Shown here one piece after another: positions 12,386-44,944 of a DNA stretch of 64,000 nucleotides. Made by a program: the position numbers and the translations under genes. Below the pieces are notes generated by a model. That model was not told where the DNA came from. It searched no databases and worked only from the letters and a program-made list of their open reading frames with translations. Location: assembly GCA_965262015.1 (NCBI GenBank), contig OZ253494.1, positions 1,786,720 through 1,850,719 on the forward strand, written 5' to 3'. Position 1 is the stretch's first letter. Each line of letters begins with the position of its first letter. The DNA is from Leptospiria bacterium (GTDB lineage Bacteria > Spirochaetota > Leptospiria > Turneriellales > CBDBES01).

Positions 12386-12454
12386 CTCATATCAAATATA
12401 ATATGTAAATATAAATATAAATTTATAGAGTACACACCCTTAGAATGGAAAGTC

Positions 12455-13130
12455 AAGTCTGGAGTTGGAAAGTTTAAGGTGTTCATAAGCCATTCTTTTT
12501 AAAAGTAAGGAGAACAGCTAATGAAAATCAAATCAATCAATGGATACATATCGAGAAATATTTATCAGAGAATATGAGTTATAGGGGGATAGCTCAAAAA
12601 ATAAATATATCAAAGTCTGCTGTCTTTTATGAGATAAAAACAAAATCAATCAATGACATACATAAGGCTAGAAATGCACAATACCTTACTGAAAAGAAAA
12701 AATATTATGCAAAGTATTATATTTAGGTCTATTCATAACATGAAAAATAGTATAAAAAAGTGTTTAGAGTATGGAGAATAGACACGATGTACATACAAAA
12801 TGGATATATTGCGGTTATAGTAGAAAGGTATCTTGAAAGATTATAGCAATGCTTATACCTAATCTAAAAGTAGAAACATTATTAGAAGCATGGGAACAGT
12901 TGTTTCCTTATGGTAGATAATATCCAGGCTATCGTCTATAGCAGAAGAACTGAAAATACAAAATTTCAAAGGAAGAGATATTCGAGCCTCCTATATGCAT
13001 GCGACCCATGTTCACCGTGGCAAAAAAATATATTTAGATCTTGTACTATGATCAATAACATGTGTAGGCTATCCTTACAAGGGAAAACTACTAACCAAGT
13101 CTATTCTGTCCAGAACTGGTAATGACTCTA
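12455..13130 (+). pseudogene. IS30-family insertion sequence remnant (most complete copy in the window), multiply frameshifted
   Basis: The 5' end plus ATG at 12521 is followed by an HTH-like stretch, QWIHIEKYLSENMSYRGIAQKINISKSAVFYEIK...ARNAQYLTEKKK (IS30 N-terminus pattern). Decayed pieces follow: IAVIVER and LYACDPCSPWQK...LQGKTTNQVYSV (IS30 YF..PY.SWQRG...PKG.DLS). Confidence 0.55.
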
Positions 13131-13304
13131 CAGAATCATGCAAACTAATTTTTATAGTAATTTAAAAGTACTTTATATGTAAAAAAACATTAGACAATTT
13201 ATCTATAATCTTATCTCTTCGGTGTAAAGAAAGAGTATAAAAATATGACAGACTTAAATCTAAATCTTTTATGACGATAAGTTTACCATAGAGAAAGTGA
13301 TTGT

Positions 13305-16300
13305 ATGATCCGTACTTTAAAACATATACTTCTTGTTTTTCTCACAATATTTTTATTTTTCCCTAGTTGTGGTAATGTAAGGGAATATATAGAGCAAGAG
13401 AGGAGACCTGAATCACCCTCCATTGGCAACCCCAATTTCCTAGAATTTGTAGAAGGATTTGAGGGAACATCCGAGTATAGACTCCTTGAGATTTCTGCTT
13501 TAGCAACTGTCACTATGGCAGGTAATGAAAGATATCTGTATGCGGGTGCCCGTAGCGACAATGCCATTCTAGTGTTTAATATTTCAGATGCACAATTAGA
13601 ACATATCCAAACCATAATGGATGTTGATAGCCCGGCTTACCATTTAGAAGAAGTTAATGAGCTAATTACCTTTCAGGTAAATGAACAACATTATGTCGCT
13701 ACTAGCTCTTTTAAAGAGAGTGGTTTTAATATTTTTAAGGTGGGTATAGACGGCAAGCTCACCATAATTGATTCCAGAGAAGATACAAGAGATATTAACC
13801 TTACATATACCTCATATCTGCATGTGGTAACTCATGGCACGGATACTTTTTTGATCGTGGGCAGTGGTGTACTAGAACATAGTGTCTTGGAAGGCAAGGG
13901 ATTAAGTATTTATAAATTCGAGAACGATGAAGTTACCTTAGAGAGTACAGTTCCCCTTAATAGCAACGAGCTGTTGCCACTTATAGCTGACATTCGTTCA
14001 ATACAAACTCCAAGTGGTCCAGTTATTTTTGTGGGTAGCATGGACAGGCAAGATAACAGCCTATTAACCTCTTACAGAATGGATAGTAGTGGTGCTGTTA
14101 CTACCATGACCCATATCAGCAGTATTCGACATGATGATGTAATATCCGAGGGGTCGGTAGAAACAGATGACTTTGGGTATGGAAGGTCCAATCGGTATGG
14201 TTTTTATGCTATAAGTGCCTTAGAGATATTTAGTGCAAATGAAAATGCTCCTGTTTTTTTGTTGGTTGCGGGTGATCGTATTGGTAGTGTAAGCTTGTTT
14301 GAGGTATCCAGGACGGACGGTAGCCTAAGACACATAGTTAGTATTTTATGGGATTTCGACAATGGTAGACAGGAGTTTGTATCTGGTATATTTAACCTAT
14401 TGCATATTTATTATGCAGATACCAGCTATCTATTGTTTCCTAACAACACATATTCTATGGGTATTTATCGTGCTTCAGCGAGTGGTTTAGACTATGTTAA
14501 CGTAATGTATGCTATGCCAGGTTTACACCTTCGTAATGTTCGAGCTATTGCTTCTGTGCATATTGATGGTAGATACTATGTTTTTACTGCTGGTTCTGAC
14601 CGTGGTATTGGTATGTTCAAGATGAATGGTGAAGATGATGGTGCGACCCTTATTCCCATCTTTGATCCTATCTGTACGAATGGAACCCCCTCAACGGTAA
14701 AGATTTCTACTGACAATACAGAAAAGTGTGTTTCTTGTGATAACTATTATGCCTTAAAACGTGATGAAAGCTGTACTCCAGTTATTGTTGAGACGTTGGC
14801 GGGTACTGGGACTGCAGGTTTTATGGATGGTGCAGGTAATGTAGCACAATTTTATGAGCCTACTGGGGTAGCGGTTGATAGTGTGGGTAATGTATATGTG
14901 GCAGTTAAAAATAGCCATCGTATCCGTAAGATAACGTCTGGTGGTGTGGTTACAACATTGGCGGGTACTGGGACTGCAGGTTTTATGGATGGTGCGGGTA
15001 ATGTAGCACAATTTAATGAGCCTAGAGGAGTAGCGGTTGATGGTTTAGGCAATATATATGTGGCGGATACTGATAACAATCGTATCCGTAAGATAACGCC
15101 TGGTGGTGTGGTTAGCACGTTTGCGGGTACTGGGACTGCAGGGAACATGGATGGTGCGGGTAATGTAGCACAATTTAATAATCCTTATGGAGTAGCGGTT
15201 GATGGTTTAGGCAATATATATGTAGCAGATACTGGTAACCACCATATCCGCAAAATAACGTCTGGTGGTGTGGTTAGCACGTTGGTGGGTACTGCTAGTC
15301 CTGCTGGAGTAGTGGTTGATGTTTCAGGCAATGTATATGTGACAGATAGTAATAACCATCGTATCCGCAAAATAACATTTGATTCTAGTGGTACGGGTAC
15401 GGTTACAACATTGGCGGGTACTGTAACTGCAGGTTTTATGGATGGTGCAGGTAATGTAGCACAATTTAATGAGCCTAGAGGAGTAGCGCTTGATAGTGTG
15501 GGTAATGTATATGTGGCAGATACGAATAACAATCGTATCCGCAAGATAACGCCTAGTGGTGTGGTTAGCACGTTAGCGGGTACTGGAACTCAAGGGGATA
15601 TGGATGGTGTGGGTAATATAGCACAATTTAATGAGCCTAGAGGAGTAGCGGTTGATAGTGTGGGTAATGTATATGTGACAGATACTGATAACCACCGTAT
15701 CCGTCGGCTAATCATAGAATCTCCTACTATTGATCCTATTTGTACGAATGGTACCCCTTCAACAGCAAAGGTTTTCTTTGCTAATACAGAAAAGTGTGTT
15801 TCTTGTGATAGTGGTTTTGATTTAAATGGCGAGATTTGCGGAGGGTTTGATCCTATCTGTACAAATGGAACCCCTTCAACGACAAAGGTTTTTACTGCTA
15901 ATACAGAAAAGTGTGCTTCTTGTAATAATGGTTTTGGTTTGGATGGTGAGCTTTGCAGAGAACAGTTTGATCCTATTTGTACGAATGGTGTTGCTTCGAT
16001 GGTAAAGCTTTTTACCGCTAATACAGGAAAGTGTGCTTCTTGTAATAATTATTACGCCTTAAAACGTGATGAGACCTGTACACCAATTATGGTTGAGACA
16101 TTGGCAGGTACTGGAACTGCAGGATTTATGGATGGTGCAGGTAATGTAGCACAATTTAATGTTCCTGTTGGAATAGCGGTTGATGGTTTAGGCAATGTAT
16201 ATGTGGGGGGGCGGGGTAACGGTCGTATCCGTAAGATAACGTCTGGTGGTGTGGTTAGCACATTTGCGGGTACTGGAACTCAGGGTTTTATGGATGGTGT

Positions 16301-18197
16301 GGCTAATGTAGCACAATTTAATATTCCTAGAGGAGTAGCGCTTGATGCTTCAGGTAATCTATATGTGGGGGATTTGAATAACAATCGTATCCGTAAGATA
16401 ACGTCTGGTGGTGTGGTTAGCACATTTGCGGGTACTGGAACTGCAGGTTTTATGGATGGTGCGGGTAATGTAGCACAATTTAATGGACCTCATGGAGTAG
16501 TGGTTGATGGATCAGAGTTTGTATATGTAGCGGATGGGGTAAACGATCGTATCCGTAAGATAACGCCTGGTGGTGTGGTTAGCACGTTGGCGGGTACTGG
16601 AACTCGGGGATTTATGGATGGTGCAGGTAATGTAGCACAATTTAATAATCCTAGAGGAGTAGCGGTTGATAGTTCAGGCAATGTATATGTGGCAGATAGG
16701 GGTAACAGTCGTATCCGTAAGATAACGCCTGGTGGTGTGGTTAGCACATTTGCGGGTACTGGAACTGCAGGTTTTATGGATGGTGCAGGTAATGTAGCAC
16801 AATTTCATTATCCTATAGGTATAGCGCTTGATAGTATAGGCAATATATATGTGGCAGATAATGGTAACAATCGTATCCGTAAGATAACGCCTGGTGGCAT
16901 GGTTAGCACATTAGCAGGCACTGGTATTAAGGCTGATGGTACTGCGGGAGGAGGTTTTATGGATGGTGCGGGTAATGTAGCACAATTTCATGCTCCTGGT
17001 GGAGTAGCGGTTGATAGTGTTGGCAATGTATACGTGGCAGATAGGTCGAATCATCGTATCCGTCGGCTAATTATAGAATCTCCTATTATTGATCCTATCT
17101 GTACGAATGGAACCCCTTCAACAGCAAAGGTTTTCTTTGCCAATACAGAGAAGTGTGTTTCTTGCAATAGCTTTTATACCTTAAAACGTGATAAAACCTG
17201 TGCACCAGTTTCTGTTAGCACGTTAGCAGGTACTGGTAGTTATGGTTTTATGGATGGTGCGGTTTATGTGGCAAAATTTAGTAGTCCTATAGGAGTAGCG
17301 GTTGATAGTTCAGGGTTTGTATACGTGGGAGATAATGACAACCATCGTATCCGGAAGATAACGTCTGGTGGTGTGGTTAGCACGTTGGCGGGTACTGGAA
17401 CTCAAGGTTTTATGGATGGTGCGGGTAATGTAGCACAATTTAATTTTCCTGCTGGAGTAGTGGTTGATGGTTCAGGCAATGTATATGTGGCGGATACTGA
17501 TAACAATCGTATCCGTAAGATAACGTCTGGTGGTGTGGTTAGCACGTTAGCAGGTACTGGAACTGCAGGGGATATGAATGGTGCAGGTACTGTAGCAGAA
17601 TTTCGTCAACCTAGAGAAGTAGCGGTTGATGGTTCAGACAATGTATATGTGACTGATGCTGGTAATCATCGTATCTGCAAGATAAGCACAAATTTTATGG
17701 GTGTGATTGTGGTTAGCACGTTAGCAGGTACTGGAATTGCAGGGTCTATGGATGGTGCGGGTAATGTAGCACAATTTAATGGACCTAGAGGAGTAGCGGT
17801 TGATGATTCAGGGTTTGTATATGTGACAGATAGTTCTAACGATCGTATCCGGAAGATAACGTCTGGTGGTATGGTTAGCATGTTGGCAGGTACTGGAACT
17901 ACAGGGTCTATGGATGGTGCGGGTAATGTAGCACAATTTAATTACCCTAATGGAGTAGCGGTTGATAATTCAGGTAATGTATATGTGGCAGATAATGGCA
18001 ACAATCGTATCCGTAAGATAACATCTACGGGTGTAGTTAGCACGTTGGCGGGTACTGGTCGTAGAGGATTTAGGAATGGTGCGGGTAATGTGGCAAAATT
18101 TGATGGACCTGTAGGAGTAGCGGTTGATAGTGATGGCAATGTATATGTGGCGGATCAGCACAACAATCGTATCCGCAAGATAACCATACCACAATAG
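13305..18197 (+). CDS. giant NHL-repeat lipoprotein: N-terminal ~450-aa unassigned domain plus three six-bladed NHL propellers separated by Cys4 modules
   Basis: 1630 aa. The signal peptide with lipobox-like LFFPSC-G has no SSR. I count 18 blades ending (N/D)xRIR(K/R). Blocks are joined by HRIRRLIIESPxIDPICTNG, which occurs twice. C-terminus is RIRKITIPQ. Confidence 0.85.
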   Translation: MIRTLKHILLVFLTIFLFFPSCGNVREYIEQERRPESPSIGNPNFLEFVEGFEGTSEYRLLEISALATVTMAGNERYLYAGARSDNAILVFNISDAQLEHIQTIMDVDSPAYHLEEVNELITFQVNEQHYVATSSFKESGFNIFKVGIDGKLTIIDSREDTRDINLTYTSYLHVVTHGTDTFLIVGSGVLEHSVLEGKGLSIYKFENDEVTLESTVPLNSNELLPLIADIRSIQTPSGPVIFVGSMDRQDNSLLTSYRMDSSGAVTTMTHISSIRHDDVISEGSVETDDFGYGRSNRYGFYAISALEIFSANENAPVFLLVAGDRIGSVSLFEVSRTDGSLRHIVSILWDFDNGRQEFVSGIFNLLHIYYADTSYLLFPNNTYSMGIYRASASGLDYVNVMYAMPGLHLRNVRAIASVHIDGRYYVFTAGSDRGIGMFKMNGEDDGATLIPIFDPICTNGTPSTVKISTDNTEKCVSCDNYYALKRDESCTPVIVETLAGTGTAGFMDGAGNVAQFYEPTGVAVDSVGNVYVAVKNSHRIRKITSGGVVTTLAGTGTAGFMDGAGNVAQFNEPRGVAVDGLGNIYVADTDNNRIRKITPGGVVSTFAGTGTAGNMDGAGNVAQFNNPYGVAVDGLGNIYVADTGNHHIRKITSGGVVSTLVGTASPAGVVVDVSGNVYVTDSNNHRIRKITFDSSGTGTVTTLAGTVTAGFMDGAGNVAQFNEPRGVALDSVGNVYVADTNNNRIRKITPSGVVSTLAGTGTQGDMDGVGNIAQFNEPRGVAVDSVGNVYVTDTDNHRIRRLIIESPTIDPICTNGTPSTAKVFFANTEKCVSCDSGFDLNGEICGGFDPICTNGTPSTTKVFTANTEKCASCNNGFGLDGELCREQFDPICTNGVASMVKLFTANTGKCASCNNYYALKRDETCTPIMVETLAGTGTAGFMDGAGNVAQFNVPVGIAVDGLGNVYVGGRGNGRIRKITSGGVVSTFAGTGTQGFMDGVANVAQFNIPRGVALDASGNLYVGDLNNNRIRKITSGGVVSTFAGTGTAGFMDGAGNVAQFNGPHGVVVDGSEFVYVADGVNDRIRKITPGGVVSTLAGTGTRGFMDGAGNVAQFNNPRGVAVDSSGNVYVADRGNSRIRKITPGGVVSTFAGTGTAGFMDGAGNVAQFHYPIGIALDSIGNIYVADNGNNRIRKITPGGMVSTLAGTGIKADGTAGGGFMDGAGNVAQFHAPGGVAVDSVGNVYVADRSNHRIRRLIIESPIIDPICTNGTPSTAKVFFANTEKCVSCNSFYTLKRDKTCAPVSVSTLAGTGSYGFMDGAVYVAKFSSPIGVAVDSSGFVYVGDNDNHRIRKITSGGVVSTLAGTGTQGFMDGAGNVAQFNFPAGVVVDGSGNVYVADTDNNRIRKITSGGVVSTLAGTGTAGDMNGAGTVAEFRQPREVAVDGSDNVYVTDAGNHRICKISTNFMGVIVVSTLAGTGIAGSMDGAGNVAQFNGPRGVAVDDSGFVYVTDSSNDRIRKITSGGMVSMLAGTGTTGSMDGAGNVAQFNYPNGVAVDNSGNVYVADNGNNRIRKITSTGVVSTLAGTGRRGFRNGAGNVAKFDGPVGVAVDSDGNVYVADQHNNRIRKITIPQ

Positions 18198-18212
18198 TCT
18201 TGTATATATTTT

Positions 18213-18250
18213 GCCCTGCCTTGCTACGGGGCAGGAGTGCTTGGTTTTCT
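18213..18250 (+). terminator. weak terminator-like hairpin after the giant NHL gene
   Basis: CCTGCC..GGCAGG forms a 6-bp stem with a 9-nt loop, followed by a T-rich run (tgcttggttttctttc). Weak. Confidence 0.3.
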
Positions 18251-18298
18251 TTCATTTATATCTATTTTTTCTCATTGATATACATATTATATAAATTT

Positions 18299-19425
18299 AG
18301 CAAGATAATTAGGGTCAGCACAGTTGATGTAAGATATACCACCCCACGACTACTGTCGCTAGGAGTGGTTGTACTTCAGCACATACATTCCTGTGGCCAA
18401 TATTATGGGCAGAAAACCTAAGGTATATATTCTTATCCTGTTAAAGCGGTCATCATCATAGCTCTAAGGGGTAGAAAGGTTCCCTGTGTAATTCATTTCA
18501 TAGCCTGGTTTTGCCAGAAAGTTTAAGTCGATTAAAGAAGCCAACCAAGATAATTAGGGTCAGCACAGTTGATGTAAGAATACCACCCCACAACTACTGT
18601 CGCTAGGGGTTGTTGTACTTCAGCACATACATTCCTGTGGCTAACATCATGGGTAGAAAACCTAAGATATATATTCTTATCCTGTTAAAGTAGTCATCAT
18701 CACAGCTCTAAGGGGTAGAAAGGTTCCCTGTGTAATTCATTTCATAGCCTGGTCTTGCCAGAAAGTTTAAGTCGATTAAAGAAGCCAACCAAGATAATTA
18801 GGGTCAGCACAGTTGATGTAAGAATACCACCCCACAACTACTGTCGCTAGGGGTTGTTGTACTTCAGCCCATACATTCCTGTGGCCAATATTATGGGCAG
18901 AAAACCTAGGATATATCTATCCTGTTAAAGCAGTCATCATCACAGCTCTAAGGCGTAGAAAGGTTCCCTGTGTAATTCATTTCATAGCCTGGTTTTGCCA
19001 GAAAGTTTAAGTCGATTAAAGAAGCCAACCAAGATAATTAGGGTCAGCACAGTTGATGTAAGATATACCACCCCACGACTACTGTCGCTAGGGGTTGTTG
19101 TACTTCAGCACATACATTCCTGTGGCCAATATTATGGGCAGAAAACCTAGGATATATCCTGTTAAAGTAGTCATCATCACAGCTCTAAGGCGTAGAGAGG
19201 TTCCCTGTGTAATTCATTTCATAGCCTGGTTTTGCCAGAAAGTTTAAGTCGATTAAAGAAGCCAACCAAGATAATTAGGGTCAGCACAGTTGATGTAAGA
19301 ATACCACCCCACAACTACTGTCGCTAGGAGTGGTTGTACTTCAGCACATACATCCCTGTGGCCAACATCATGGGTAGAAAACCTAAGGTATATATTCTTA
19401 TCCTGTTAAAGCGGTCATCATCATA
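18299..19425. repeat. tandem array (~4.6 copies, period 238-245 bp) of the 3' end of an RND pump pseudogene
   Basis: Unit starts (caagataattagggtcagcac) are at 18301, 18546, 18790, 19030 and 19268. The reverse strand of each unit reads MMMTALT..LGFLPMMLATG / AEVQQPLATVVVG / GILTSTVLTLIILVGFFNRLKLSGKTRL* across three frames. Confidence 0.85.
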
Positions 19426-19544
19426 ACCCCAATTAAGAGTAGACCTACAACTCCGTCCGCTAGAGAAAACAAAATACCTAGTAAAATTAGAATCGTTTGT
19501 AGCCAATTATAGAAAGCAGAATAGACCTTCCAAATACATAACAT
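19426..19544 (-). pseudogene. RND pump fragment joined to the last tandem unit
   Basis: The reverse strand reads MLCIWKVYSAFYNWLQTILILLGILFSLADGVVGLLLIGV, then runs directly into MMMTALTG* of the array. The ~70 codons present at the other loci are deleted here. Confidence 0.5.
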
Positions 19545-19548
19545 TTTT

Positions 19549-19563
19549 CTGACAGATTGTCAG
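19549..19563. promoter_or_regulatory. perfect palindrome CTGACA-gat-TGTCAG upstream of the NHL-2 promoter (possible operator)
   Basis: Read directly. It is identical at 21747-21761 and degenerate at locus 1 (ctgataatttgttag). Confidence 0.2.
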
Positions 19564-19599
19564 CGAAATGAGTATTTAATTACAAAAATGAAAAAACAA

Positions 19600-19629
19600 T
19601 TGACATTTTATTCATTAAGAAGATATTCT
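19600..19629 (+). promoter_or_regulatory. sigma-70-like promoter of NHL paralog 2
   Basis: TTGACA at 19600-19605 and TATTCT at 19624-19629. The block is identical to locus 1. Confidence 0.4.
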
Positions 19630-19697
19630 ATGCCAACGAGAACTTCATGTCTCAATGCACCATAATTGGTGCAGTAAAGAGAGGTACCAAAATGATA

Positions 19698-19763
19698 AAC
19701 AAGCAACAAGCAACAAGCAACAAGCAACAAGCAACAAGCAACAAGCAACAAGCAACAAGCAAC
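19698..19763 (+). repeat. heptanucleotide SSR (AACAAGC) x9 plus AAC
   Basis: Counted directly: 63 nt at 19698-19760, then AAC. Confidence 0.95.
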
Positions 19764-19863
19764 CTATAAGTTTTTTCCTAAATTTTTAGAACGAATTGTT
19801 GATCAAGGTCAACATTCTTTCCATGTATTCAAAAGATACTTCTCGATCAGCGTATTTGCCGTA

Positions 19864-21072
19864 TTGGTGGTAAGTGCCGTCCAATGTGGAGGTGCCCCCT
19901 CTGCCGACGCTACTACCCCTTCTGATGGTGGGTCTGGACAGTTTGATCCTATTTGTCCCAATGGTGTTGCCTCAACAGAAAAGGTTTCAACCGCTAACAT
20001 AGAAAAATGTGTTTCTTGTAATATTGATTTTGAGAAAAATGGTGAACTTTGCAGACCATTCAATTTTATTTGTCCCAATGGTGTTGAATCAACAGGTAAA
20101 GCTCCTGGGAAGGGTATAGAAAAATGTACTTCTTGCGATAGTTATTATGCCTTTAAAAGTGATAAAACCTGTGCCGTGGTTATGGTTAGCACGTTGGCGG
20201 GTACTGACGCTACGGGGGATTTTAATGAGCCTGGTGGAGTAGCAGTTGATGGTGATGGGGTTGTATATGTGGCAGATACATTAAATCATCGTATCCACAA
20301 GATAACACCTGATCCTATTGATCCTAATGGTACTGGTATGGTTATCACATTGGCGGGTACTGACGCTACGGGGGATTTTAATACTCCTAGAGGAGTAGCG
20401 GTTGATAGTTCAGGCAATGTATATGTGGCAGATGGTAAGAATCATCGTATCCGCAAAATAACATTTGATCCTAGTGGTACGGGTACGGTTATCACGTTGG
20501 CGGGTACTAATGCTATGGGGGATTTTAATCAGCCTGGTGGAGTAGCGGTTGATGGTTCAGGCAATGTATATGTGGCTGATATAGTTAACCATCGTATCCG
20601 CAAAATAACATTTGATCCTAGTGGTACGGGTACGGTTATCACGTTGGCGGGTACTGATGCTATGGGGGATTTTAATCAGCCTTTTGGCGTAGCGGTTGAT
20701 AGTTCAGGAAATGTATACGTGGCTGATACTAGTAACCATCGTATCCACAAAATAACGCCTCCTTCTAGTGGTATGGTTATCACATTGGCGGGTACTGACG
20801 CTATGGGGGATTTTAATACTCCTAGAGGAGTAGCGGTTGATAGTGATGGCAATGTATATGTAGCAGATACATTCAATCATCGTATCCGCAAAATAACGCC
20901 TAGTGGTGTGATTAGCATGTTGGCGGGTACTGGGGCTATAGGGGACATGAATGGTGCGGGTGGTGATGCACAATTTCACTCTCCTAATGGAGTAGCGGTT
21001 GATAGTGATGGCAATGTATATGTAGCAGATACATTAAATCATCGTATCCGCAAAATAACCATACCACAATAA
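19864..21072 (+). CDS. NHL-repeat six-bladed propeller protein (paralog 2); body ORF out of frame with its upstream ATGs (apparent phase-OFF)
   Basis: The ORF-track start (TTG 19864) lies inside the hydrophobic segment. The same frame is open back through the SSR (..QQATYKFFPKFLERIVDQGQHSFHVFKRYFSISVFAVLVV) but contains no start codon. ATG 19647 and ATG 19692 are in another frame and stop at TAA 19767-19769. Six blades; IPQ C-terminus. Confidence 0.75.
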   Translation: MVVSAVQCGGAPSADATTPSDGGSGQFDPICPNGVASTEKVSTANIEKCVSCNIDFEKNGELCRPFNFICPNGVESTGKAPGKGIEKCTSCDSYYAFKSDKTCAVVMVSTLAGTDATGDFNEPGGVAVDGDGVVYVADTLNHRIHKITPDPIDPNGTGMVITLAGTDATGDFNTPRGVAVDSSGNVYVADGKNHRIRKITFDPSGTGTVITLAGTNAMGDFNQPGGVAVDGSGNVYVADIVNHRIRKITFDPSGTGTVITLAGTDAMGDFNQPFGVAVDSSGNVYVADTSNHRIHKITPPSSGMVITLAGTDAMGDFNTPRGVAVDSDGNVYVADTFNHRIRKITPSGVISMLAGTGAIGDMNGAGGDAQFHSPNGVAVDSDGNVYVADTLNHRIRKITIPQ

Positions 21073-21095
21073 TTGTAATCTCGTATCTTATTACA

Positions 21096-21131
21096 CCCAT
21101 CCCACGTTGGGGTGGGGTATTTAGTTTTTTT
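21096..21131 (+). terminator. Rho-independent terminator of NHL paralog 2
   Basis: The CCCATCCCA-cgt-TGGGGTGGG hairpin is followed by gtatttagttttttt. Confidence 0.7.
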
Positions 21132-21269
21132 AGCTGTTTTTTGATTATCACCATGTTTCATATAAAATTAGTTTTTCTAATTTTATATTGCAGTTATAGA
21201 CTTTTTATACGAGGCAATTAATCTCTTACCACTATTTTTTCTATGAAGTCTTGGTAAATTTGAAAGCAT

Positions 21270-21543
21270 AAGTTCCATTTTTAGACAGTTTAAGGCGTTC
21301 ATAAGCCGTTTTTCTTTAAGATACTAAAAATAAAGAGAGCAAGTAATGAAAATTCCTTTTAGCATTGCCAAAAGACAGATCAAGAATGGCTAACCAAGTT
21401 TGCACTGTCCAGAGATGATGCTGACGGTACCAAGATTCCACAGCCAATCACTTAAAAATACTTGATATTTGTACTCTTTAGAGTACGTATCCACGCAATT
21501 CCTCTGTGTTGTGTTGTGGCTGTGTTAAGCCGTTTCTCACGAG
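21270..21543 (+). mobile_element. IS30-derived MITE-like element, full-length copy (~270 bp)
   Basis: It shares its 5' end with 12470-12530 and its 3' part (ggctaaccaagtttgcactgtccagagatgatgctgac..cacttaaaaatacttgatatttgt) with 13085-13175. It abuts the RND fragment. Confidence 0.45.
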
Positions 21544-21742
21544 CCAACCAAGACAATTCTATTTAAAACAGCAACACCATAAAAGACAATACATCCACCT
21601 GATGCTAGAATCCTAAAAGGGTAACCCCAATAAGAAGTAGACCTGCAACTCCGTCTGCTAGAACAAACGGAATACCTAGTAGAATTAGAATCGCTTGTAG
21701 CCAATTATAGAAAGCAGAATAGACTTTCCAAATACATAACAT
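21544..21742 (-). pseudogene. RND efflux transporter C-terminal fragment
   Basis: The reverse strand reads MLCIWKVYSAFYNWLQAILILLGIPFVLADGVAGLLLIGVTLLGF*, then decayed ..AVLNRIVLVG. It is homologous to the fragments at 590-730 and 19426-19544. Confidence 0.5.
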
Positions 21743-21746
21743 TTTT

Positions 21747-21761
21747 CTGACAGATTGTCAG
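21747..21761. promoter_or_regulatory. palindrome CTGACA-gat-TGTCAG upstream of the NHL-3 promoter
   Basis: Identical to 19549-19563. Confidence 0.2.
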
Positions 21762-21797
21762 CAAAATGAGTATTTAATTACAAAAATGAAAAAACAA

Positions 21798-21827
21798 TTG
21801 ACATTTTATTCATTAAGAAGATATTCT
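21798..21827 (+). promoter_or_regulatory. sigma-70-like promoter of NHL paralog 3
   Basis: TTGACA at 21798-21803 and TATTCT at 21822-21827. Confidence 0.4.
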
Positions 21828-21895
21828 ATGCCAACGAGAACTTCATGTCTCAATGCATCATAATTGGTGCAGTAAAGAGAGGTACCAAAATGATA

Positions 21896-22003
21896 AACAA
21901 GCAACAAGCAACAAGCAACAAGCAACAAGCAACAAGCAACAAGCAACAAGCAACAAGCAACAAGCAACAAGCAACAAGCAACAAGCAACAAGCAACAAGC
22001 AAC
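21896..22003 (+). repeat. heptanucleotide SSR (AACAAGC) x15 plus AAC
   Basis: Counted directly: 105 nt at 21896-22000, then AAC. Confidence 0.95.
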
Positions 22004-22103
22004 CTATAAGTTTTTTCCTAAATTTTTAGAACGAATTGTTGATCAAGGTCAACATTCTTTCCATGTATGCAAAAGATACCTCTCGATCAGCGTATTTGCC
22101 GTA

Positions 22104-23507
22104 TTGGTGGTAAGCGTCCAATGTGGTGGTGCCTCTGCCGACGCTACTACCCCTTCTGATGGTGGGTCTGGACAGTTTGATCCTATTTGTCCCAATGGTG
22201 TTGCCTCAACAGAAAAGGTTTCAACCGCTAACACAGAAAAATGTGTTTCTTGTAATAGTGGTTTTGGTTTAGACGGTGAGATTTGTAGAGAACAGTTTGA
22301 TCCTATTTGTCCGGATGGTGTTGCCTCAACAGAAAAGGTTTTAACCGCTAACACAGAAAAATGTGTTTCTTGTAATGGTGGTTTTGAGAAAAATGGTGAA
22401 CTTTGCAGACCATTCAATTTTATTTGTCCCAATGGTGTGCCATTAACAGGTGAAGCTCCTGGGAAGAATATGGTAATGTGTACTTCTTGCGATGACTATT
22501 ATGCCTTAAAACGTGATGAAACCTGTGCCGAGGTTCAGGTTATAACGTTGGCGGGTACTGGGGCTGTAGGGGACATGAATGGTGCGGGTGGTTCAGCAAA
22601 ATTTAATGAGCCTAGTGGTGTAGCAGTTGATAGTGATGGGGTTGTATATGTGGCAGATAGTCATAACCACCGTATCCGCAAGATAACGCCTCCTTCTAAT
22701 GGAATAGGTATGGGTACGGTTAGCACGTTGGCGGGTACTAATGCTATGGGGGATTTTAATGAGCCTAGTGGAGTAGCGGTTGATAGTGATAAAAATGTAT
22801 ACGTGGCGGATCGTCGTAACCATCGTATCCAGAAGATAACGCCTAATCGTGTGGTTACAACGTTGGCGGGTACTGGAATGAAGATAGGGGAAATGGGGGG
22901 GATGGTAAAGGGAGGAGCTTTTAGTGATGACGTTGACACTAACGGGGATAGCATGCTTGATCCTGGTTCAGCACAATTTAGTCAGCCTTATGGAGTAGCG
23001 GTTGATAGTGATAAAAATGTATATGTGGCTGATATAGCTAACCATCGTATCCGGAAGATAACATCTACGGGTGTAGTTAGCACGTTGGCGGGTACTGATG
23101 CTATGGGGGATTTTAATCAGCCTTTTGGCGTAGCGGTTGATAGTTCAGGAAATGTATACGTGGCTGATACTAGTAACGAGCGTATCCGGAAGATAAGCAA
23201 TACTATGGGTATGGGTATGGGTATGGTTAAGACCTTGGCGGGTTCTGGTCTTGCTCTTACTAGAGGAGTAGCGGTTGATGGTGATGACAATGTATATGTG
23301 GTTGATGGTGGCCATCGTATCCACAAGATAACGCCTAGTGGTGTGATTAGCACGTTGGCGGGTACTAGGGCTTCAGGGGACATGAATGGTGCGGGTGGTT
23401 CAGCACAATTTTTCTCTCCTTATGGAGTAGCGGTTGATAGTGATGGCAATGTATATGTAGCAGATACATTCAACCATCGTATCCGCAAAATAACCATACC
23501 ACAATAA
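22104..23507 (+). CDS. NHL-repeat six-bladed propeller protein (paralog 3); body ORF out of frame with its upstream ATGs (apparent phase-OFF)
   Basis: The situation matches paralog 2. ATG 21845 and ATG 21890 read through the SSR into TAA 22007-22009, while the body frame starts at ACC 22002. It has three Cys4 modules, six blades and the IPQ C-terminus. Confidence 0.75.
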   Translation: MVVSVQCGGASADATTPSDGGSGQFDPICPNGVASTEKVSTANTEKCVSCNSGFGLDGEICREQFDPICPDGVASTEKVLTANTEKCVSCNGGFEKNGELCRPFNFICPNGVPLTGEAPGKNMVMCTSCDDYYALKRDETCAEVQVITLAGTGAVGDMNGAGGSAKFNEPSGVAVDSDGVVYVADSHNHRIRKITPPSNGIGMGTVSTLAGTNAMGDFNEPSGVAVDSDKNVYVADRRNHRIQKITPNRVVTTLAGTGMKIGEMGGMVKGGAFSDDVDTNGDSMLDPGSAQFSQPYGVAVDSDKNVYVADIANHRIRKITSTGVVSTLAGTDAMGDFNQPFGVAVDSSGNVYVADTSNERIRKISNTMGMGMGMVKTLAGSGLALTRGVAVDGDDNVYVVDGGHRIHKITPSGVISTLAGTRASGDMNGAGGSAQFFSPYGVAVDSDGNVYVADTFNHRIRKITIPQ

Positions 23508-23530
23508 TTGTAATCTCGTATATTATTATA

Positions 23531-23553
23531 CCCATCCCACGTTGGGGGTGGGG
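23531..23553 (+). terminator. terminator-like hairpin after NHL paralog 3
   Basis: The same CCCATCCCA..TGGGGGTGGGG hairpin is present, but no clear T-run follows. Confidence 0.4.
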
Positions 23554-23632
23554 TTAGGATATTTGCAAATAGTTAGTTGATGGTGGTATAATTAAATCTT
23601 GAGATAACACAGGTGTTTTAGCAAGATGTTAT

Positions 23633-23722
23633 CAGCCTTATGGCGTAGCGATTGATGGTTTAGGCAATGTATATGTGGCAGATGCAGGTAACCATCGTAT
23701 CCAAAAGATAACGCCACAATAA
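23633..23722 (+). pseudogene. isolated terminal NHL blade fragment
   Basis: Reads [29 protein letters not shown]. This is the last blade plus the family C-terminus, with no start codon, leader or other blades. Confidence 0.7.
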
Positions 23723-23952
23723 TTATGATCTTATATTTTGTTTCGCTTTGCCGTGGGGTTGAGATAAAGTTGGTTTTCTTCTTCATGGTTGATATATCTC
23801 ATATGTTTTAAGTTTGGTCACATCTGCTTTAAGAAAAAAACTATGAATACTTAAATTGTCCATAACCAGAATTAACTTTCAAAGTATAAAATACGTCCTT
23901 TAAAATTTTGGCTTGACTACTCCACACATATGGCCTGCAGTGTGCGTAGATT

Positions 23953-24177
23953 ATGCCGAAGCAGTGCGTTGTTACACAAAAGAAAACTCGTAGCGGTAAT
24001 AATGTGAGTCATTCTCATGTTAAAACTAAACGAATCTTTAAGGCTAACATACATAAACAACGAGTCTATGTACCTCATTTAAAAAAGTGGGTGAAGCTTA
24101 CTATTTCAGCCCGTGGTTTAAAGATTTTGCAAAAAAAAGGTGCCGATAAGGTTCTTCCCCCTAATATCCTTGCATAG
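23953..24177 (+). CDS. rpmB: 50S ribosomal protein L28
   Basis: 74 aa. MPKQCVVTQKKTRSGNNVSHSHVKTKRIFKANI matches the L28 signature (C..tGk....GnnvSHs..kTkR.f.pN). Confidence 0.85.
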   Translation: MPKQCVVTQKKTRSGNNVSHSHVKTKRIFKANIHKQRVYVPHLKKWVKLTISARGLKILQKKGADKVLPPNILA

Positions 24178-24255
24178 CTATTTAGCTGTGTTATTTGGAT
24201 TATAATTATACCAAAAAATTGCTTTTTTTTAAGGCCAGTGATCCGTAATTAGTGA

Positions 24256-26115
24256 GTGATGCGTTTTTTATTATTACGTTATGCAAGTCTGCCAATTCTC
24301 TTGTGTTTATGTATTATCTTGTCAGCAAATTCAATTACCTTCACAGATAGGCATGAGAAAATAATGAATCTAGGTGATAAAGTAAATTCTACCTATAATG
24401 ACTACCTTCCTTACGTCTCACCTAATGAAAATTTATTATATATGACGTCTGATCGCCCTAGTTATAAAGCCAGCCTACTGCAAGCAGATACACAATATTA
24501 TCAAAGTCGCATATGGAAAATTCCAATGCTTCATAGAGAGGGAAACTTATCCTTTGGTTATCCCACTATTTTTGATAGCAAGATCAATAATAGGATATTT
24601 AATGGTCTTGTATCTGTAAGATATATTTCGGATAGTGACTACCATATTTATTTTACTTCATTGACTAACCATATCTCAGTGAATAGCAATACTGATATTT
24701 TAGTGGCTCATGTGGTAAACAGCGAAGTTGAAACAGTTAAAGTAATTCATGAAATTAGCACAGGATTTAATGAACGCATGCCCTACATCTCTTCAGATGG
24801 CACGGCATTATTTTTTTCTTCTGACCGTCCAGGCGGTTATGGAGAGGATGATATATGGGTCTCTACTTATAACTTTACCCAAAAAACCTGGAATGTTCCT
24901 GCTAATTTGGGACAAAATGTAAATACACCTAATTCAGAGATTTCGCCGTCTATCCACCATAATAATAGTTTATTTTTCTCTTCAAATAAAGAGGGTGGTA
25001 TTGGCGGGTATGATATTTATGTTACGCAAAAAAATAAGCGTATCCCAGATCTATTACATTGGGATCAAGCAAAAAATATCAGTCTACCTTATAATTCACC
25101 ATGGGATGACGAACGGCCCGTTTTTACTCATTCAACACAATATTTTTATTTTTGCTCTAATCGTGCAGGAGGTTATGGTGGTTATGATATCTATAAAGCG
25201 AAAGTGCCTTTAATCATTAAACCCCATAAAACGATTACTTTACAGGGTCGAATTTATGATCACATTTCTCAGGTTGGAATTAAAGCAAATATTCAGGTTC
25301 TTAATTATGATACAGAAATTAATATTTCTAGCATCTTACCTCTAGGGCGCTATTCTGTAAAGCTACGTAATTCAGACAAATACCAAATTATTGTTTCTGC
25401 ACTTGGTTATCAAACACAAGTATATCATCTAGATTTTCAAGATCAAGTAAGTGATATCGATATGATTGAAAAAAATTTTCTCTTAGATACCAAGAACAAT
25501 ATGAAATCTCATAAGATGATGCAAGACAAGATGTCACCCACTCATAAGATGATGCAAGACAAGATGTCACCCACTCATAAGATGATGCAAGACAAGATGT
25601 CACCCACTCATAAGATGATGCAAGATAAGATGTCACCCACTCATAAGATGATGCAAGATAAGATGTCACCCACTCATAAGATGATGCAAGATAAGATGTC
25701 ACCCACTCATAAGATGATGCAAGATAAGATGTCACCCACTCATAAGATGATGATACATGATTCCATGCATTCGGACAGTCAACCTATGGCTATTATCCTC
25801 TTTAAACGTCATATATATAATAAGCTTATCCCAAACGAAGAAGCAAAAATCCGGACTCTATTTACTAGGTGGAAACAAAATCCACAGCACTCATTCCAAT
25901 TAAGGGGACATTCTGCTCGCAAAGAAAAAAAAGATAGAAAGAAAGACCTGTCTAAGAAACGAGCTATGTATGTAAAAGAACGCTTATTATTGTATGACAT
26001 TCCTGAAGAAAGAATTCAGCTCAACTGGTATGCAGATAAGAGGCCTGCCATGGTCGAGAACACAATAAAAAAAAGTGAGCTTAATCAGCGAGTAGAGATA
26101 TTTTTACTAAAGTAA
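24256..26115 (+). CDS. OmpA-family envelope protein with TolB-like (PD40) repeats, a Met/His-rich tandem repeat and a C-terminal OmpA domain
   Basis: 619 aa with a signal peptide. Repeated Y(F)SSDRPGGYG..DIY(W) motifs indicate PD40-type blades. The C-terminus LRGHSA..LSKKRAMYVKERLL..NQRVEIFLL is an OmpA_C-like peptidoglycan-binding motif. Confidence 0.75.
   Translation: MMRFLLLRYASLPILLCLCIILSANSITFTDRHEKIMNLGDKVNSTYNDYLPYVSPNENLLYMTSDRPSYKASLLQADTQYYQSRIWKIPMLHREGNLSFGYPTIFDSKINNRIFNGLVSVRYISDSDYHIYFTSLTNHISVNSNTDILVAHVVNSEVETVKVIHEISTGFNERMPYISSDGTALFFSSDRPGGYGEDDIWVSTYNFTQKTWNVPANLGQNVNTPNSEISPSIHHNNSLFFSSNKEGGIGGYDIYVTQKNKRIPDLLHWDQAKNISLPYNSPWDDERPVFTHSTQYFYFCSNRAGGYGGYDIYKAKVPLIIKPHKTITLQGRIYDHISQVGIKANIQVLNYDTEINISSILPLGRYSVKLRNSDKYQIIVSALGYQTQVYHLDFQDQVSDIDMIEKNFLLDTKNNMKSHKMMQDKMSPTHKMMQDKMSPTHKMMQDKMSPTHKMMQDKMSPTHKMMQDKMSPTHKMMQDKMSPTHKMMQDKMSPTHKMMIHDSMHSDSQPMAIILFKRHIYNKLIPNEEAKIRTLFTRWKQNPQHSFQLRGHSARKEKKDRKKDLSKKRAMYVKERLLLYDIPEERIQLNWYADKRPAMVENTIKKSELNQRVEIFLLK
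25510..25752 (+). repeat. 33-bp tandem repeat, 7 perfect-length copies plus a partial one, encoding (HKMMQDKMSPT)n
   Basis: Counted directly. Copies 1-3 carry GAC-AAG and copies 4-7 carry GAT-AAG (a synonymous C/T difference). The partial eighth copy diverges to HKMMIHDSMHS. Confidence 0.95.
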
Positions 26116-35924: not shown

Positions 35925-36830
35925 ATGCGAGAAAAACTCCAGGGATATTACCTTGCTAGCTTTGGTAGCGTATCCGCCAGTATCTTTTTTATTGCCGTTA
36001 AGGGCAGTCATCATGGACAGCAGTTTTCTGTTGGTTTCTTGTGGTTAATCTATGGATTCGCCTGCTTGATTAGTATGTTATTATTTACACGACCCAAAGA
36101 ATTTTTGGTGACGTGTAATTGGCCTACCATAGTGTTTGGTGTTGCATTTGGCCTATTTTCTATCATGGGTAACTATGCTATTGGGCGAGCACTAGAGTTT
36201 TCTAGCCCAAGTGTCACCGTAATTATATTGCGGGTACAGGTTCTTTTTGTTATATTAATGGGTATTATCTTCTTGGGTGAAAAGTTACGGAAAGAATTAT
36301 GGTTTGGCTGTGCAGTTAGTTGCTTAGGGTTTTTATTATTACGTTGGAATTCATTAAACGATGGCTTGCATTATAAAACAATCTTATGGAGTTTATTTGC
36401 AGCGGGAAATTTTGCCATTGCAAATGTTGCGATAAAAAAATGGATTCTTCTTTTAAATTTGCCTGTTATTAATTTTTTACGATTGTTGGTAGGGGCACTT
36501 ATACTTCCCTTTTTCATTAACGGCTCGATTAATCATTTTATATACCAAGTAGTGGATATGCGTATGGTACTATTGGCCTTTACAGCAGCTTTATGTGGAC
36601 CTAATCTATCTCGATTATCTCAGATGTATGCAATGCAAAAACTCCCCGTATCTCATACTATCCTTTTTACAATGTTAACCCCTATGGTAACAATGTATCT
36701 AGCTTGGTTATTATGGGATACATTACCTTCATATATGATGTTAGCAGGTAGTTCTCTCATCCTAGGTGGGGTGATGCTGTCTACATTAGATATAGGGGCT
36801 TTATATAGGAGAATAAGAAACATCCCGTAG
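35925..36830 (+). CDS. EamA/DMT-family transporter
   Basis: 301 aa with about 10 predicted TM segments in two similar halves. The 3' end overlaps the tRNA-Glu on the opposite strand by about 10 nt. Confidence 0.55.
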   Translation: MREKLQGYYLASFGSVSASIFFIAVKGSHHGQQFSVGFLWLIYGFACLISMLLFTRPKEFLVTCNWPTIVFGVAFGLFSIMGNYAIGRALEFSSPSVTVIILRVQVLFVILMGIIFLGEKLRKELWFGCAVSCLGFLLLRWNSLNDGLHYKTILWSLFAAGNFAIANVAIKKWILLLNLPVINFLRLLVGALILPFFINGSINHFIYQVVDMRMVLLAFTAALCGPNLSRLSQMYAMQKLPVSHTILFTMLTPMVTMYLAWLLWDTLPSYMMLAGSSLILGGVMLSTLDIGALYRRIRNIP

Positions 36831-36892
36831 GGGAGTCGAACCCCTGTTGCAGGAATGAAAATCCTGAGTCCTGACCACTAGACGAACGGGAC
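36821..36892 (-). tRNA. tRNA-Glu (anticodon TTC)
   Basis: Reverse complement: GTCCCGT-TC-GTCT..AGGAC-T-CAGGA-TTTTCAT-TCCTG-..AGGGG-TTCGACT-CCCCT-ACGGGAT-G. The cloverleaf was checked by hand. No encoded CCA. Confidence 0.85.
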
Positions 36893-36897
36893 AAATA

Positions 36898-36970
36898 TAA
36901 GGTGTCCGGGATTCGAACCCGGGGCCCACTGCTTAAAAGGCAGTTGCTCTACCAACTGAGCTAACACCTC
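36898..36970 (-). tRNA. tRNA-Lys (anticodon TTT)
   Basis: Reverse complement: GAGGTGT-TA-GCTC-AGTTGGTA-GAGC-A-ACTGC-CTTTTAA-GCAGT-..CCGGG-TTCGAAT-CCCGG-ACACCTT-A. Confidence 0.85.
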
Positions 36971-37067
36971 AGGTAATAAATTACATAGCACGGTTTGTTT
37001 CAAACTTGTCTATGTCAACCCATTGTTTAATTCTAGAATAAGTAAATTTGGAATAGAGAGTTAGTAC

Positions 37068-38309: not shown

Positions 38310-38381
38310 CGGGATGTGGCGCAGTGGTAGCGCACCTGTTTTGGGAACAGGGGGTCGCTGGTTCAAATCCAGTCATCCCGA
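38310..38381 (+). tRNA. tRNA-Pro (anticodon TGG)
   Basis: CGGGATG-TG-GCGC-AGTGGTA-GCGC-A-CCTGT-TTTGGGA-ACAGG-..GCTGG-TTCAAAT-CCAGT-CATCCCG-A. Confidence 0.85.
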
Positions 38382-38386
38382 AGTTT

Positions 38387-38460
38387 GCGCCAGTAGCTCA
38401 GTTGGATAGAGCAACGGCCTTCTAAGCCGTGGGCCAGGGGTTCGAATCCTCTCTGGCGTA
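38387..38460 (+). tRNA. tRNA-Arg (anticodon TCT)
   Basis: GCGCCAG-TA-GCTC-AGTTGGATA-GAGC-A-ACGGC-CTTCTAA-GCCGT-..AGGGG-TTCGAAT-CCTCT-CTGGCGT-A. Confidence 0.85.
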
Positions 38461-38484
38461 CTTGTCTTGTAGAGGGGTCTTATA

Positions 38485-44602: not shown

Positions 44603-44944
44603 GGGGACGCATTGGTTTCGACTAAGATAGTTTAGAACTATGAAAAGCATGCAAAGAGCCATCTTTTAAAAATGGCAACTTAAAATAAATGACAATAGTC
44701 AAGAATTTGCTTTAGCTGCTTAGTGCAGTTAGCGCCGTTTTATCTGTTCGCTTCTAGGTAGGTAAAATGGCTCACATTATAGAAGCTAGGTTTTGTGTGG
44801 CAAAGGCATAAAATCGAAACTATTTTGCTTAGGGTAATGTTGCACTGTCTATGAGACACATTATCTGAAACTTAATCATAGACTAAGCATGTAGAAAGCT
44901 TATTTTGATATTTTAGGACGCGGGTTCAAATCCCGCCGTCTCCA
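44603..44944 (+). ncRNA. ssrA: tmRNA (ssrA)
   Basis: 5' end GGGGACGCATTGGTTTCGAC and 3' tRNA-like end GGACGCGGGTTCAAATCCCGCCGTCTCCA. The internal tag ORF AAT GAC AAT AGT CAA GAA TTT GCT TTA GCT GCT TAG gives tag (A)NDNSQEFALAA. Confidence 0.9.

Follow-up and report, generated by a model that had tools for sequence, protein, structure and literature searches.

The 64,000-nucleotide window analyzed here, from contig OZ253494.1 of a Leptospiria bacterium, encodes a family of NHL propeller proteins whose small members begin with a conserved translated leader placed before a hydrophobic segment. We favor, with modest confidence, the explanation that these genes are an expanded family of exported lipoproteins and that the leader is the N-terminal extension of a cleaved signal peptide that houses a repeat switch. 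Judged from sequence, the family proteins are probably lipid anchored. The signal peptide of the small paralogs would have an N-terminal extension of 19–53 residues composed of the start codon, an (AACAAGC)n tract translated as (KQQATSN)n, and a conserved FPKFLERIVDQGQHSFHVFK segment, followed by one or two basic residues, a hydrophobic core of 15–17 residues, and the lipobox Cys. Signal peptidase II would remove the whole extension. The repeat peptide of variable length would then never reach the mature protein, and since the extension is cut off, a change in repeat number would alter the reading frame only, switching it on or off. The conserved, amphipathic, and basic segment most likely keeps the n-region working beside a polar tract of changing length, and the leader DNA also closes both wrong frames right behind the tract. 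In the predicted mature protein, a flexible tether leads to one to three disulfide-bonded β-hairpin Cys4 modules arranged as a rod, followed by a six-bladed NHL propeller that is likely the ligand-binding head.

The interval 13305–23722 contains four family members: a giant protein, paralog B, paralog C, and an orphan fragment of a last propeller blade. Paralog A (859–2418, + strand) and a short paralog (37900–37379, − strand) lie beyond this interval within the window. An earlier note on this DNA held that all members share a hydrophobic segment ending in Cys-Gly, a Gly/Ser/Thr-rich linker, four-Cys modules, and a six-bladed propeller with an invariant IPQ end. This description fits paralogs A, B, and C, but the giant and the short paralog deviate from it in leader, tether, blades, and tail. 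The closest relatives of the modules are all encoded, together with the short paralog, on one 1,922,353-bp contig and are therefore same-genome paralogs. P0001 is a second giant with a plain signal, and P0090 is a second one-blade protein. P0003 (980 residues), P0004 (610 residues), and P0113 (530 residues) have the leader and lack the tract, and P0014 and P0058 have plain FSC lipoboxes and no leader-type signal.

Repeat tracts and reading frames

Paralog B (19692–21072, +) is laid out as ATG, (AACAAGC)n, leader, hydrophobic core, Cys, tether, modules, propeller, and IPQ. The tract sits between the start codons and the leader, and its in-frame translation is (KQQATSN)n. Tandem repeat finder (TRF) detected (AACAAGC)10.4 in paralog A (911–983), (AACAAGC)9.4 in paralog B (19698–19763), and (AACAAGC)15.4 in paralog C (21896–22003), all on the + strand and with 100% matches. 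These are perfect tandem repeats in a 5′ coding region with a 7-nt unit that is not a multiple of three, as is characteristic of contingency loci. The differences in tract length between the three paralogs, read from one assembly, are suggestive of phase variation.

The 5′ control region of paralog B (19600–19694) contains a promoter-like site, three ATGs, and a Shine-Dalgarno-like site. The promoter-like TTGACA-N16/18-TATTCT (19600–19629) is a consensus match only, and the number of such sites found equals the shuffle expectation. ATG1 is at 19647, ATG2 at 19655, and ATG3 at 19692, with the Shine-Dalgarno-like AAAGAGAGG at 19676–19684. Paralog C (ATG1 21845, ATG2 21853, Shine-Dalgarno-like site 21874–21882, ATG3 21890) and paralog A (ATG1 859, ATG2 867, Shine-Dalgarno-like site 889–897, ATG3 905) have the same layout on the same strand. 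Of the three start codons, ATG3 alone has a good Shine-Dalgarno-like sequence, 7 nt upstream. In B and C, the frame of ATG1 is also that of ATG3, ATG2 occupies the second, and the body of the protein is in the third, which leaves both genes off in this assembly. The loss of one unit would open the ATG3 frame, and the gain of one would open the ATG2 frame. In paralog A, a 1-nt insertion puts ATG1 (859) in the body frame, the only start codon in frame with the protein, and the Shine-Dalgarno-preceded ATG3 (905) is out of frame. Adding or removing one unit restores a frame in all three genes. Both wrong frames close 2 and 9 codons past the tract (L*; PISFFLNF*) at stops that lie in the leader DNA (cTATAAg and tttTTAGaa). 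Elsewhere in the genome, the tract is in frame from ATG2 in P0018 (547 residues) and from ATG3 in P0023 (484 residues).

Neisseria opa genes carry CTCTT repeats in the signal-peptide or 5′ coding region, and Haemophilus lic1 carries CAAT repeats behind two start codons. The window genes resemble these systems in having, directly behind the start codon, a repeat unit with a length not divisible by three, start codons in two frames that leave two of the three phases open, copy numbers that differ between paralogs (9.4, 10.4, and 15.4), and a repeat-encoded peptide in a part of the protein that is probably removed. They differ in having a heptanucleotide unit, in belonging to a Leptospirales spirochaete, and in the position of the tract, which lies in an N-terminal extension ahead of a conserved leader rather than within the hydrophobic core. 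The opa and lic1 repeats also differ from the window tracts in that the latter are known from one assembly. Literature searches returned no paper on NHL lipoproteins in Leptospira or on heptanucleotide repeats in signal peptides.

Several features accompany the 5′ ends of these genes. The (KQQATSN)n translation in paralog A (859–983) is a weak match (expect value (E) 0.029) to the NCBIfam model "KRQAASG repeat spurious translation," which means that annotation pipelines may discard or truncate such genes. In paralogs B (19398–19544, −) and C (21605–21742, −), the promoter-like site is immediately preceded by a small divergent open reading frame (ORF; MLCIWKVYSAFYNWLQ.ILILLGI...). It is truncated upstream of paralog A, with a partial copy near 680–740, and is kept as part of the duplicated 5′ cassette. 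A non-coding element of ~200 nt is conserved far upstream of paralog A (500–590), paralog C (21350–21560), and the short paralog (38230–37950, −). About 330 nt are missing between this element and the start codon of the short paralog, and with them the small ORF, promoter-like site, and repeat tract. The 5′ cassettes of A, B, and C have a synonymous divergence (dS) of ≤0.15, compared to 0.25–0.52 for the propellers, a contrast suggestive of mosaic recombination or of gene conversion at the 5′ end.

The leader and the predicted signal peptide

The leader reads YKFSPKFLERIVDQGQHSFHVFKRY in paralog A (985–1059), YKFFPKFLERIVDQGQHSFHVFKRY in paralog B (25 codons, 19765–19839), the same as B but with HVCK in paralog C (22005–22079), and YKYITTFLEQIADQCQYSFHVFKGH in the short paralog (37879–37805, −), where it comes directly after MTYNQQI. 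The 25-residue consensus of the four is YK(F/Y)..(K/T)FLE(R/Q)I(V/A)DQ(G/C)Q(H/Y)SFHV(F/C)K.., which bears out the earlier claim of a conserved segment of ~25 residues ahead of the hydrophobic segment in the small paralogs. That the leader is translated, as the note also proposed, is supported by the reading frames. From the repeat tract to the hydrophobic core, the body frame contains no ATG, GTG, or TTG, so a signal-bearing protein can be made only by translation through the tract and the leader. The lack of an in-frame start codon rules out initiation at an internal site beyond the tract. The tract is missing from the short paralog, P0003, P0004, and P0113, which start with M-x-N-(K)-Q straight into the leader, and these repeat-free paralogs rule out the leader as 5′ untranslated sequence. 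The short paralog has AGGAG 9 nt before its ATG at 37900 and reads MTYNQQI-YKY..., and P0018 and P0023 read in frame through the tract into the leader.

The leaders of A, B, and C are nearly identical (dS 0–0.08), and the 200 nt of non-coding DNA upstream are 92–98% identical, compared to a dS of 0.25–0.52 in the propellers. These values indicate that the 5′ cassette was recently copied or homogenized. The near-identity of the three leaders reflects recent copying, not selection, and is uninformative on constraint. The same data support the idea that the leader has no function of its own and is a tolerated spacer in a cleaved signal peptide, kept alike by duplication and gene conversion of a 5′ cassette that comprises promoter, repeat tract, leader, tether, and first module. 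The sharing of non-coding 3′ flanks by A, B, and the short paralog fits this idea, as do the loss of 11 leader-core residues (ERIVDQGQHSF) from P0113 and the absence of the leader from every other genome or metagenome searched. We consider it unlikely, based on the diverged paralogs. The leaders of the short paralog and paralog B are near synonymous saturation (dS 1.4 to saturated), yet 60% of the residues are kept and the nonsynonymous divergence (dN) is 0.19, giving a dN/dS of ~0.14 from 25–40 codons. An alignment of nine paralogs shows that P0003, P0004, and P0023 hold the pattern FPKFL(E/K)..V.(D/G)Q.Q... next to a tether that varies freely. In the diverged paralogs, the leader looks constrained as a protein. 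The FPKFLERIVDQ segment is strongly amphipathic when drawn as a helix, with a hydrophobic moment of 0.80.

The leader was not found outside the source genome in a word-indexed protein search with the N-terminal 147 residues of paralog A, a negative that reflects a limit of the index, given that an exhaustive profile search did recover relatives. The GTDB species representatives scanned with leader and module patterns gave no match, and the JGI metagenomes contained no leader match to peptide patterns or to a degenerate DNA pattern for DQ-Q-SFHV-K. A sorting or regulatory role for the leader, raised by the earlier note, is possible as far as the sequence goes. The specific proposal is a dedicated targeting or pacing signal that, like autotransporter ESPR or YSIRK, would select a route, slow the translocation of a large β-rich cargo, or decide between surface and periplasm. 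The layout is that of long autotransporter signals, in which the ESPR is a conserved extension of ~25 residues before an otherwise normal n-h-c signal peptide (PMC2805444). The leader segment is also amphipathic and constrained, and it is found only in the single-propeller and short paralogs, not in the giant. These resemblances to the ESPR (PF13018) of autotransporters and two-partner secretion proteins are offset by clear differences. None of the five window proteins matched ESPR or YSIRK in Pfam, even at E values as high as 1, the window cargo is a putative lipoprotein rather than a type V secretion substrate, and the window extension contains a repeat tract. The giant, P0001, P0014, and P0058 carry the same domains behind plain signals, so the cargo needs no leader, and P0113 lacks the leader core. 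Together these observations make a dedicated signal rather unlikely. A Tat signal was rejected: there is no Arg-Arg pair, and KFLE/KFLK sits 17 residues ahead of the core. The disulfide-rich cargo would also argue for Sec over Tat export.

An extended lipoprotein signal that is cleaved accounts for what follows the leader. Every leader-bearing paralog has an uncharged stretch of 15–17 residues after the leader that ends in Cys, and the Cys is directly after the core in all nine aligned paralogs. The core and lipobox of paralog B are FSISVFAVLVVSAVQ-C (19840–19887; Cys41 at 19885–19887), those of paralog C are at 22080–22124, the lipobox Cys of paralog A is at 1105–1107, and the core of the short paralog runs into IQC (Cys47, 37762–37760, −). 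The giant has no leader and a classical lipoprotein signal, as the earlier note stated; its plain signal, with an uncharged core of 15 residues, reads MIRTLKHILLVFLTIFLFFPSC and then GN (Cys22, 13368–13370). The Cys-Gly claimed for the end of the hydrophobic segment is replaced by Cys-Arg in the short paralog and holds for A, B, C, and the giant. The n-region has a net charge of +2 to +8, except in the short paralog, where it is 0, and the family conforms to the lipoprotein pattern of a basic n-region before an uncharged core of about 7–22 residues.

P0004 (ISC) and the giant (PSC) have a classical residue (Ala, Gly, or Ser) at −1 of the lipobox, whereas A, B, and C (VQC) and the short paralog (IQC) do not. 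In leptospiral lipoproteins, the residue at −1 is reported to be most often Ser, Asn, Gly, or Ala (PMC2063517). Gln is the next homologue of Asn. P0004 has Ser in the homologous −1 column (MVSISC), where most paralogs have Gln. Five unrelated module-bearing proteins (P0016, P0026, P0029, P0102, and P0127) have xQC after short plain signals, as in MKQKCKQRSRGIAWGVFFVLALFIFQ followed by CGGG. A crude survey of the 150 best module-bearing proteins found 86 with a lipoprotein-like N terminus, and the −1 residues of these 86 were Gly in 32, Ala in 18, Ser in 11, and Gln in 11. The earlier concern that Gln at −1 makes lipidation uncertain is correct in that the residue is noncanonical, but the Ser of P0004 and the xQC of the five unrelated lipoproteins weaken it.

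The tether of A, B, and C is Gly/Ser/Thr-rich (GGASADATTPSGGGSGQ; pattern GGA(P)SADATTPS(G/D)GGSGQ). It is GGAPSADATTPSDGGSGQ in paralog B (19888–19941), where Pro is also abundant, and occupies 22125–22175 in paralog C. Such a linker was attributed to all members and is present in these three; the tether of the short paralog is Pro-rich, and the giant has a domain of ~430 residues instead. The number of Cys after the lipobox is even in A, B, C, and the short paralog, with four per module and pairs in some blades; the giant has 21 after its lipobox Cys, of which the one outside the modules (residue 1458) is unpaired. Paired Cys numbers in the mature parts argue against a cytoplasmic location and fit an oxidizing compartment. 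The window proteins resemble spirochaetal lipoproteins (Leptospira LipL and Borrelia Osp; PMC2063517 and, in part, general knowledge) in core, loose lipobox, Cys, and low-complexity G/S/T/P tether, and differ from them in the Gln at −1 and in the extension of 19–53 residues before the signal in the small paralogs. They score far below the cut-offs of the NCBIfam models for leptospiral propeller lipoproteins (LipL53 family and LIC_12708 family).

The PknD NHL sensor is held by a transmembrane helix. That the hydrophobic segment is likewise an uncleaved anchor, an option named in the earlier note, is very unlikely. In this view the segment would be a signal-anchor, these would be type II membrane proteins, and the leader would form a small domain in the cytoplasm. 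The Gln at −1, a long basic N-terminal region (net charge +3 to +8) that suits the positive-inside rule, and the membrane-held PknD sensor as the closest natural solved bacterial propeller by Foldseek speak for it. Against it, the uncharged stretch is only 15–17 residues including polar Ser and Gln, the same as the cleavable signal of the giant, a Cys ends the segment in all nine paralogs, P0004 has an orthodox VSISC lipobox, and unrelated proteins have xQC after a short plain signal.

The leader and core sequences are best read as an extended lipoprotein signal that is cleaved. Several observations weigh against this reading. Gln at −1 lies outside both the classical lipobox and the common Leptospira residues. 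The constraint on the leader is estimated from few codons, and the P0113 deletion indicates that part of the leader core is not essential, provided P0113 works at all. The wrong-frame stops derive from the Y-K and F-L-E codons in an AT-rich genome and need not be selected. The AlphaFold2 model of paralog B draws helices in the leader, but residues 1–122 have a predicted local distance difference test (pLDDT) score of <50 and the model is unreliable there. Every leader-bearing protein comes from one genome, on the single 1,922,353-bp contig.

Cys4 modules and NHL propellers

The window contains 13 Cys4 modules: five in the giant, two in paralog A, two in paralog B, three in paralog C, and one in the short paralog. 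The Cys spacing is C-x16/17-C-x2-C-x10-12-C, and TRF finds a period of 117–120 nt over the modules for a unit of ~39 residues, in agreement with the modules of about 37 residues with four Cys described earlier. There are two subtypes. Internal modules end ...G(F)..(N/D)GE(L/I)C, and propeller-proximal modules end ...(Y/F)Y.(L/F)K.D(E/K).C. The two modules of paralog B (19942–20178) are one of each type, first internal (...CVSCNIDFEKNGELC) and then propeller-proximal (...CTSCDSYYAFKSDKTC). Those of paralog A are at 1159–1395, and those of paralog C at 22176–22535. The dN/dS of the last module of A, B, and C is about 1 or above, over few sites.

The profile and structure searches proposed for the module found no well-described family above threshold. 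No Pfam or NCBIfam model reached threshold with the window proteins, single modules, or distant carriers, and a profile search of PDB sequences returned only noise. DUF4215 (PF13948), a Cys-rich repeat with no known function, recurs consistently as a relative below threshold. Of 35 three-module segments, 23 match it with E ≤ 1 (best E 1e-6), but window sequences score 17.8–23.9 bits against it and never reach the gathering threshold of 27; the best of these scores belongs to the segment of the giant. The match is register-shifted, running from the CxxC of one module into the next. The AlphaFold2 model of the three-module segment of the giant has a mean pLDDT of 94 and two short β-hairpins per module. 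A Foldseek search of PDB with this model gave no significant match (best E 0.19, template modeling (TM) score ≤0.33). The weak matches are mostly EGF-like, TNF-receptor, furin-like, and related small disulfide-rich repeats. The module resembles these eukaryotic surface repeats in being a small four-Cys, two-hairpin unit of ~39 residues that forms a tandem rod, and differs in Cys spacing and in the lack of a significant structure match or a Pfam match above threshold.

A word-indexed protein search with the module profile found nothing, again a limit of the index. When a profile of the 13 modules was searched exhaustively, 254 cluster representatives matched at E ≤ 1e-3, of which 97 reached E ≤ 1e-10. 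Most module carriers look like lipoproteins. The distant carriers join tandem modules to varied heads, and some of these carriers have domains that Pfam recognizes as aBig_2, fibronectin type III, GLUG, or RCC1. In P0119, the modules occur alongside what, judged by eye from the sequence, are NHL-like repeats. The fusion of modules to many different heads suggests that the Cys4 module behaves like a general stalk or spacer unit. The novelty claimed for it holds to the extent that no curated family covers it; its wide occurrence and the relationship to DUF4215 indicate a module that is uncurated, not unique.

The NHL propeller is ordinary. Pfam NHL (PF01436; cut-off 20 bits) matches paralogs A, B, and C at E 1e-49 to 1e-57 over 5–6 stretches (paralog B, E 1.5e-56 over six), the giant at E 4e-141 over 18 stretches that form three six-bladed propellers, and the short paralog at E 6e-9 over one stretch. 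The six-bladed propeller assigned to every member is thus present once each in A, B, and C and three times in the giant, but the short paralog has a single blade and no closed six-bladed fold. The propeller of paralog B (20179–21072, including the stop codon) is modeled by AlphaFold2 as a closed six-bladed fold with a pLDDT of about 75–95. Foldseek aligns it to the PknD-derived Pizza6 designs (E 1e-25, 39–40% identity), the extracellular domain of PknD (E ~1e-21, 34% identity), and TRIM-type NHL domains (also ~1e-21), with target-normalized TM scores of 0.85–0.90 to Pizza6 and PknD. Like other PF01436 propellers such as Mycobacterium tuberculosis PknD (PDB 1RWI), each window propeller has six NHL blades; unlike those of the PknD type, it lies behind a lipoprotein-type signal, tether, and Cys4 modules. 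More than 7000 proteins from across the bacteria match the propeller at E up to 1e-10 with 45–57% identity, with a coverage of ~78% that is confined to the propeller. None of the nearest homologues inspected has the modules, the leader, or the IPQ end. The propellers of A, B, and C have a dN/dS of 0.7–0.84, as expected of an exposed binding head, and the sequences fit a head that is fast changing.

The C-terminal tail is near constant but not invariant, contrary to the earlier note. The giant and paralogs A, B, and C end in ITIPQ or IAIPQ, the short paralog ends in IPR, the fragment in TPQ, and genome paralogs in ITITQ, ITIPK, or IRIETE. Paralog B ends RIRKIT-IPQ. In its model RIRKIT is the last strand and IPQ is a three-residue overhang just past blade 6, and we infer from the model that the strand V.VSTLAG just past the last module completes this blade. 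The stop codon and ~130 nt downstream, including the terminator-like hairpin (21096–21116 in paralog B, from a terminator scan), are common to A, B, and the short paralog. The near-constancy of the tail follows from structure and the shared 3′ cassette. IPQ as a sorting signal was rejected because it varies, sits after the last strand of blade 6, and owes part of its conservation to the shared 3′ cassette.

The remaining members vary this architecture. The giant (13305–18197, +; 1630 residues) has five modules, three propellers, and an extra domain of ~430 residues, and lacks both leader and tether. The extra domain (residues 23–450, 13371–14654) exceeds the cut-off of Pfam Lactonase, a seven-bladed propeller, over one short stretch (25.4 bits vs 21.7). 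It is followed by module 1 (14658–14780), propeller 1 with six NHL blades (14793–15713), modules 2–4 (15729–16085), propeller 2 (16098–17072), module 5 (17091–17207), and propeller 3 (17220–18185), with ITIPQ at 18180–18194. A near-identical N-terminal domain heads P0001. Paralog C (21845–23507, +, with ATG3 at 21890) has one six-bladed propeller that ends ITIPQ (22545–23504). Paralog A has a six-bladed propeller behind its modules and ends IAIPQ. In the short paralog (173 residues), the Cys is followed by a Pro-rich tether, a single Cys4 module, and a single NHL blade, and the protein ends IIIPR. This paralog and P0090 are both intact, each with its one NHL blade preceded by one module. One blade is not enough to form a closed propeller, and the one-blade members may assemble as oligomers or be decaying. 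The fragment at 23603–23722 (+) consists of a last NHL blade that ends QKITPQ, has no start codon or signal, and is a probable pseudogene remnant. An extra Cys pair occurs in an inserted loop of some first or fourth blades (GGMPCTPSSSSCMDG, GGIACTPPSSNCMDG, and ATECGTTTPATGGESCKDG), at 1440–1480 and 1990–2030 in paralog A and at 37541–37503 (−) in the short paralog, and the loop recurs in P0004, P0007, and P0113.

Neighboring features and significance

The DNA between the giant and paralog B (18301–19423) consists of a 244-bp unit in 4.6 copies with 93% matches. Its minus strand has only short, interrupted hydrophobic ORFs, and it may be a decayed, internally duplicated membrane-protein gene. 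Rfam gave no match at E up to 0.1 on either strand of 12400–24300, which takes in this repeat. The gene at 24256–26115 encodes a signal peptide and a C-terminal part judged by eye to be OmpA-type, and contains an in-frame 33-bp repeat (25508–25752, 7.4 copies, 99% matches) that encodes (MSPTHKMMQDK)n. Pairs of tRNA genes, Glu with Lys and Pro with Arg, lie on either side of the short paralog (36820–36971 and 38310–38461). A tmRNA gene at 44603–44944 encodes the tag DNSQEFALAA.

The window is ~35% G+C and contains two spirochaete-type flagellin genes, one of which is ≤79% identical to a gene of OZ241995.1, a 1.19-Mb "Leptospiria bacterium" genome; the next matches are from uncultured Leptospirales. 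The propeller family is private to this uncultured, small-genome Leptospirales lineage and is expanded there.

Lipoproteins with NHL propellers, simple-sequence switches where the signal is encoded, and extended signal peptides are all known themes, of which this family is a variation. It is doubtful, though conceivable, that the system goes further: the leader would then be a new lineage-specific extended lipoprotein signal, a counterpart of ESPR and YSIRK tied to a heptanucleotide switch whose peptide is discarded, and the Cys4 module would be an undescribed stalk domain widely used by uncultured spirochaete-like bacteria to hold binding heads off the membrane. With at least 254 cluster representatives, a fold predicted with confidence, and no relative among solved structures or curated families, the Cys4 unit merits a family model. 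To our knowledge, repeat-driven phase variation is little documented in Leptospirales. Placing the repeat in a signal extension that is cut off would permit a frame switch within the coding region without any change to the mature protein. If the favored explanation is true, a small-genome relative of Leptospira spends a notable share of its coding capacity on switchable surface propellers, a pattern that would be expected of an organism that varies what it presents to a host.

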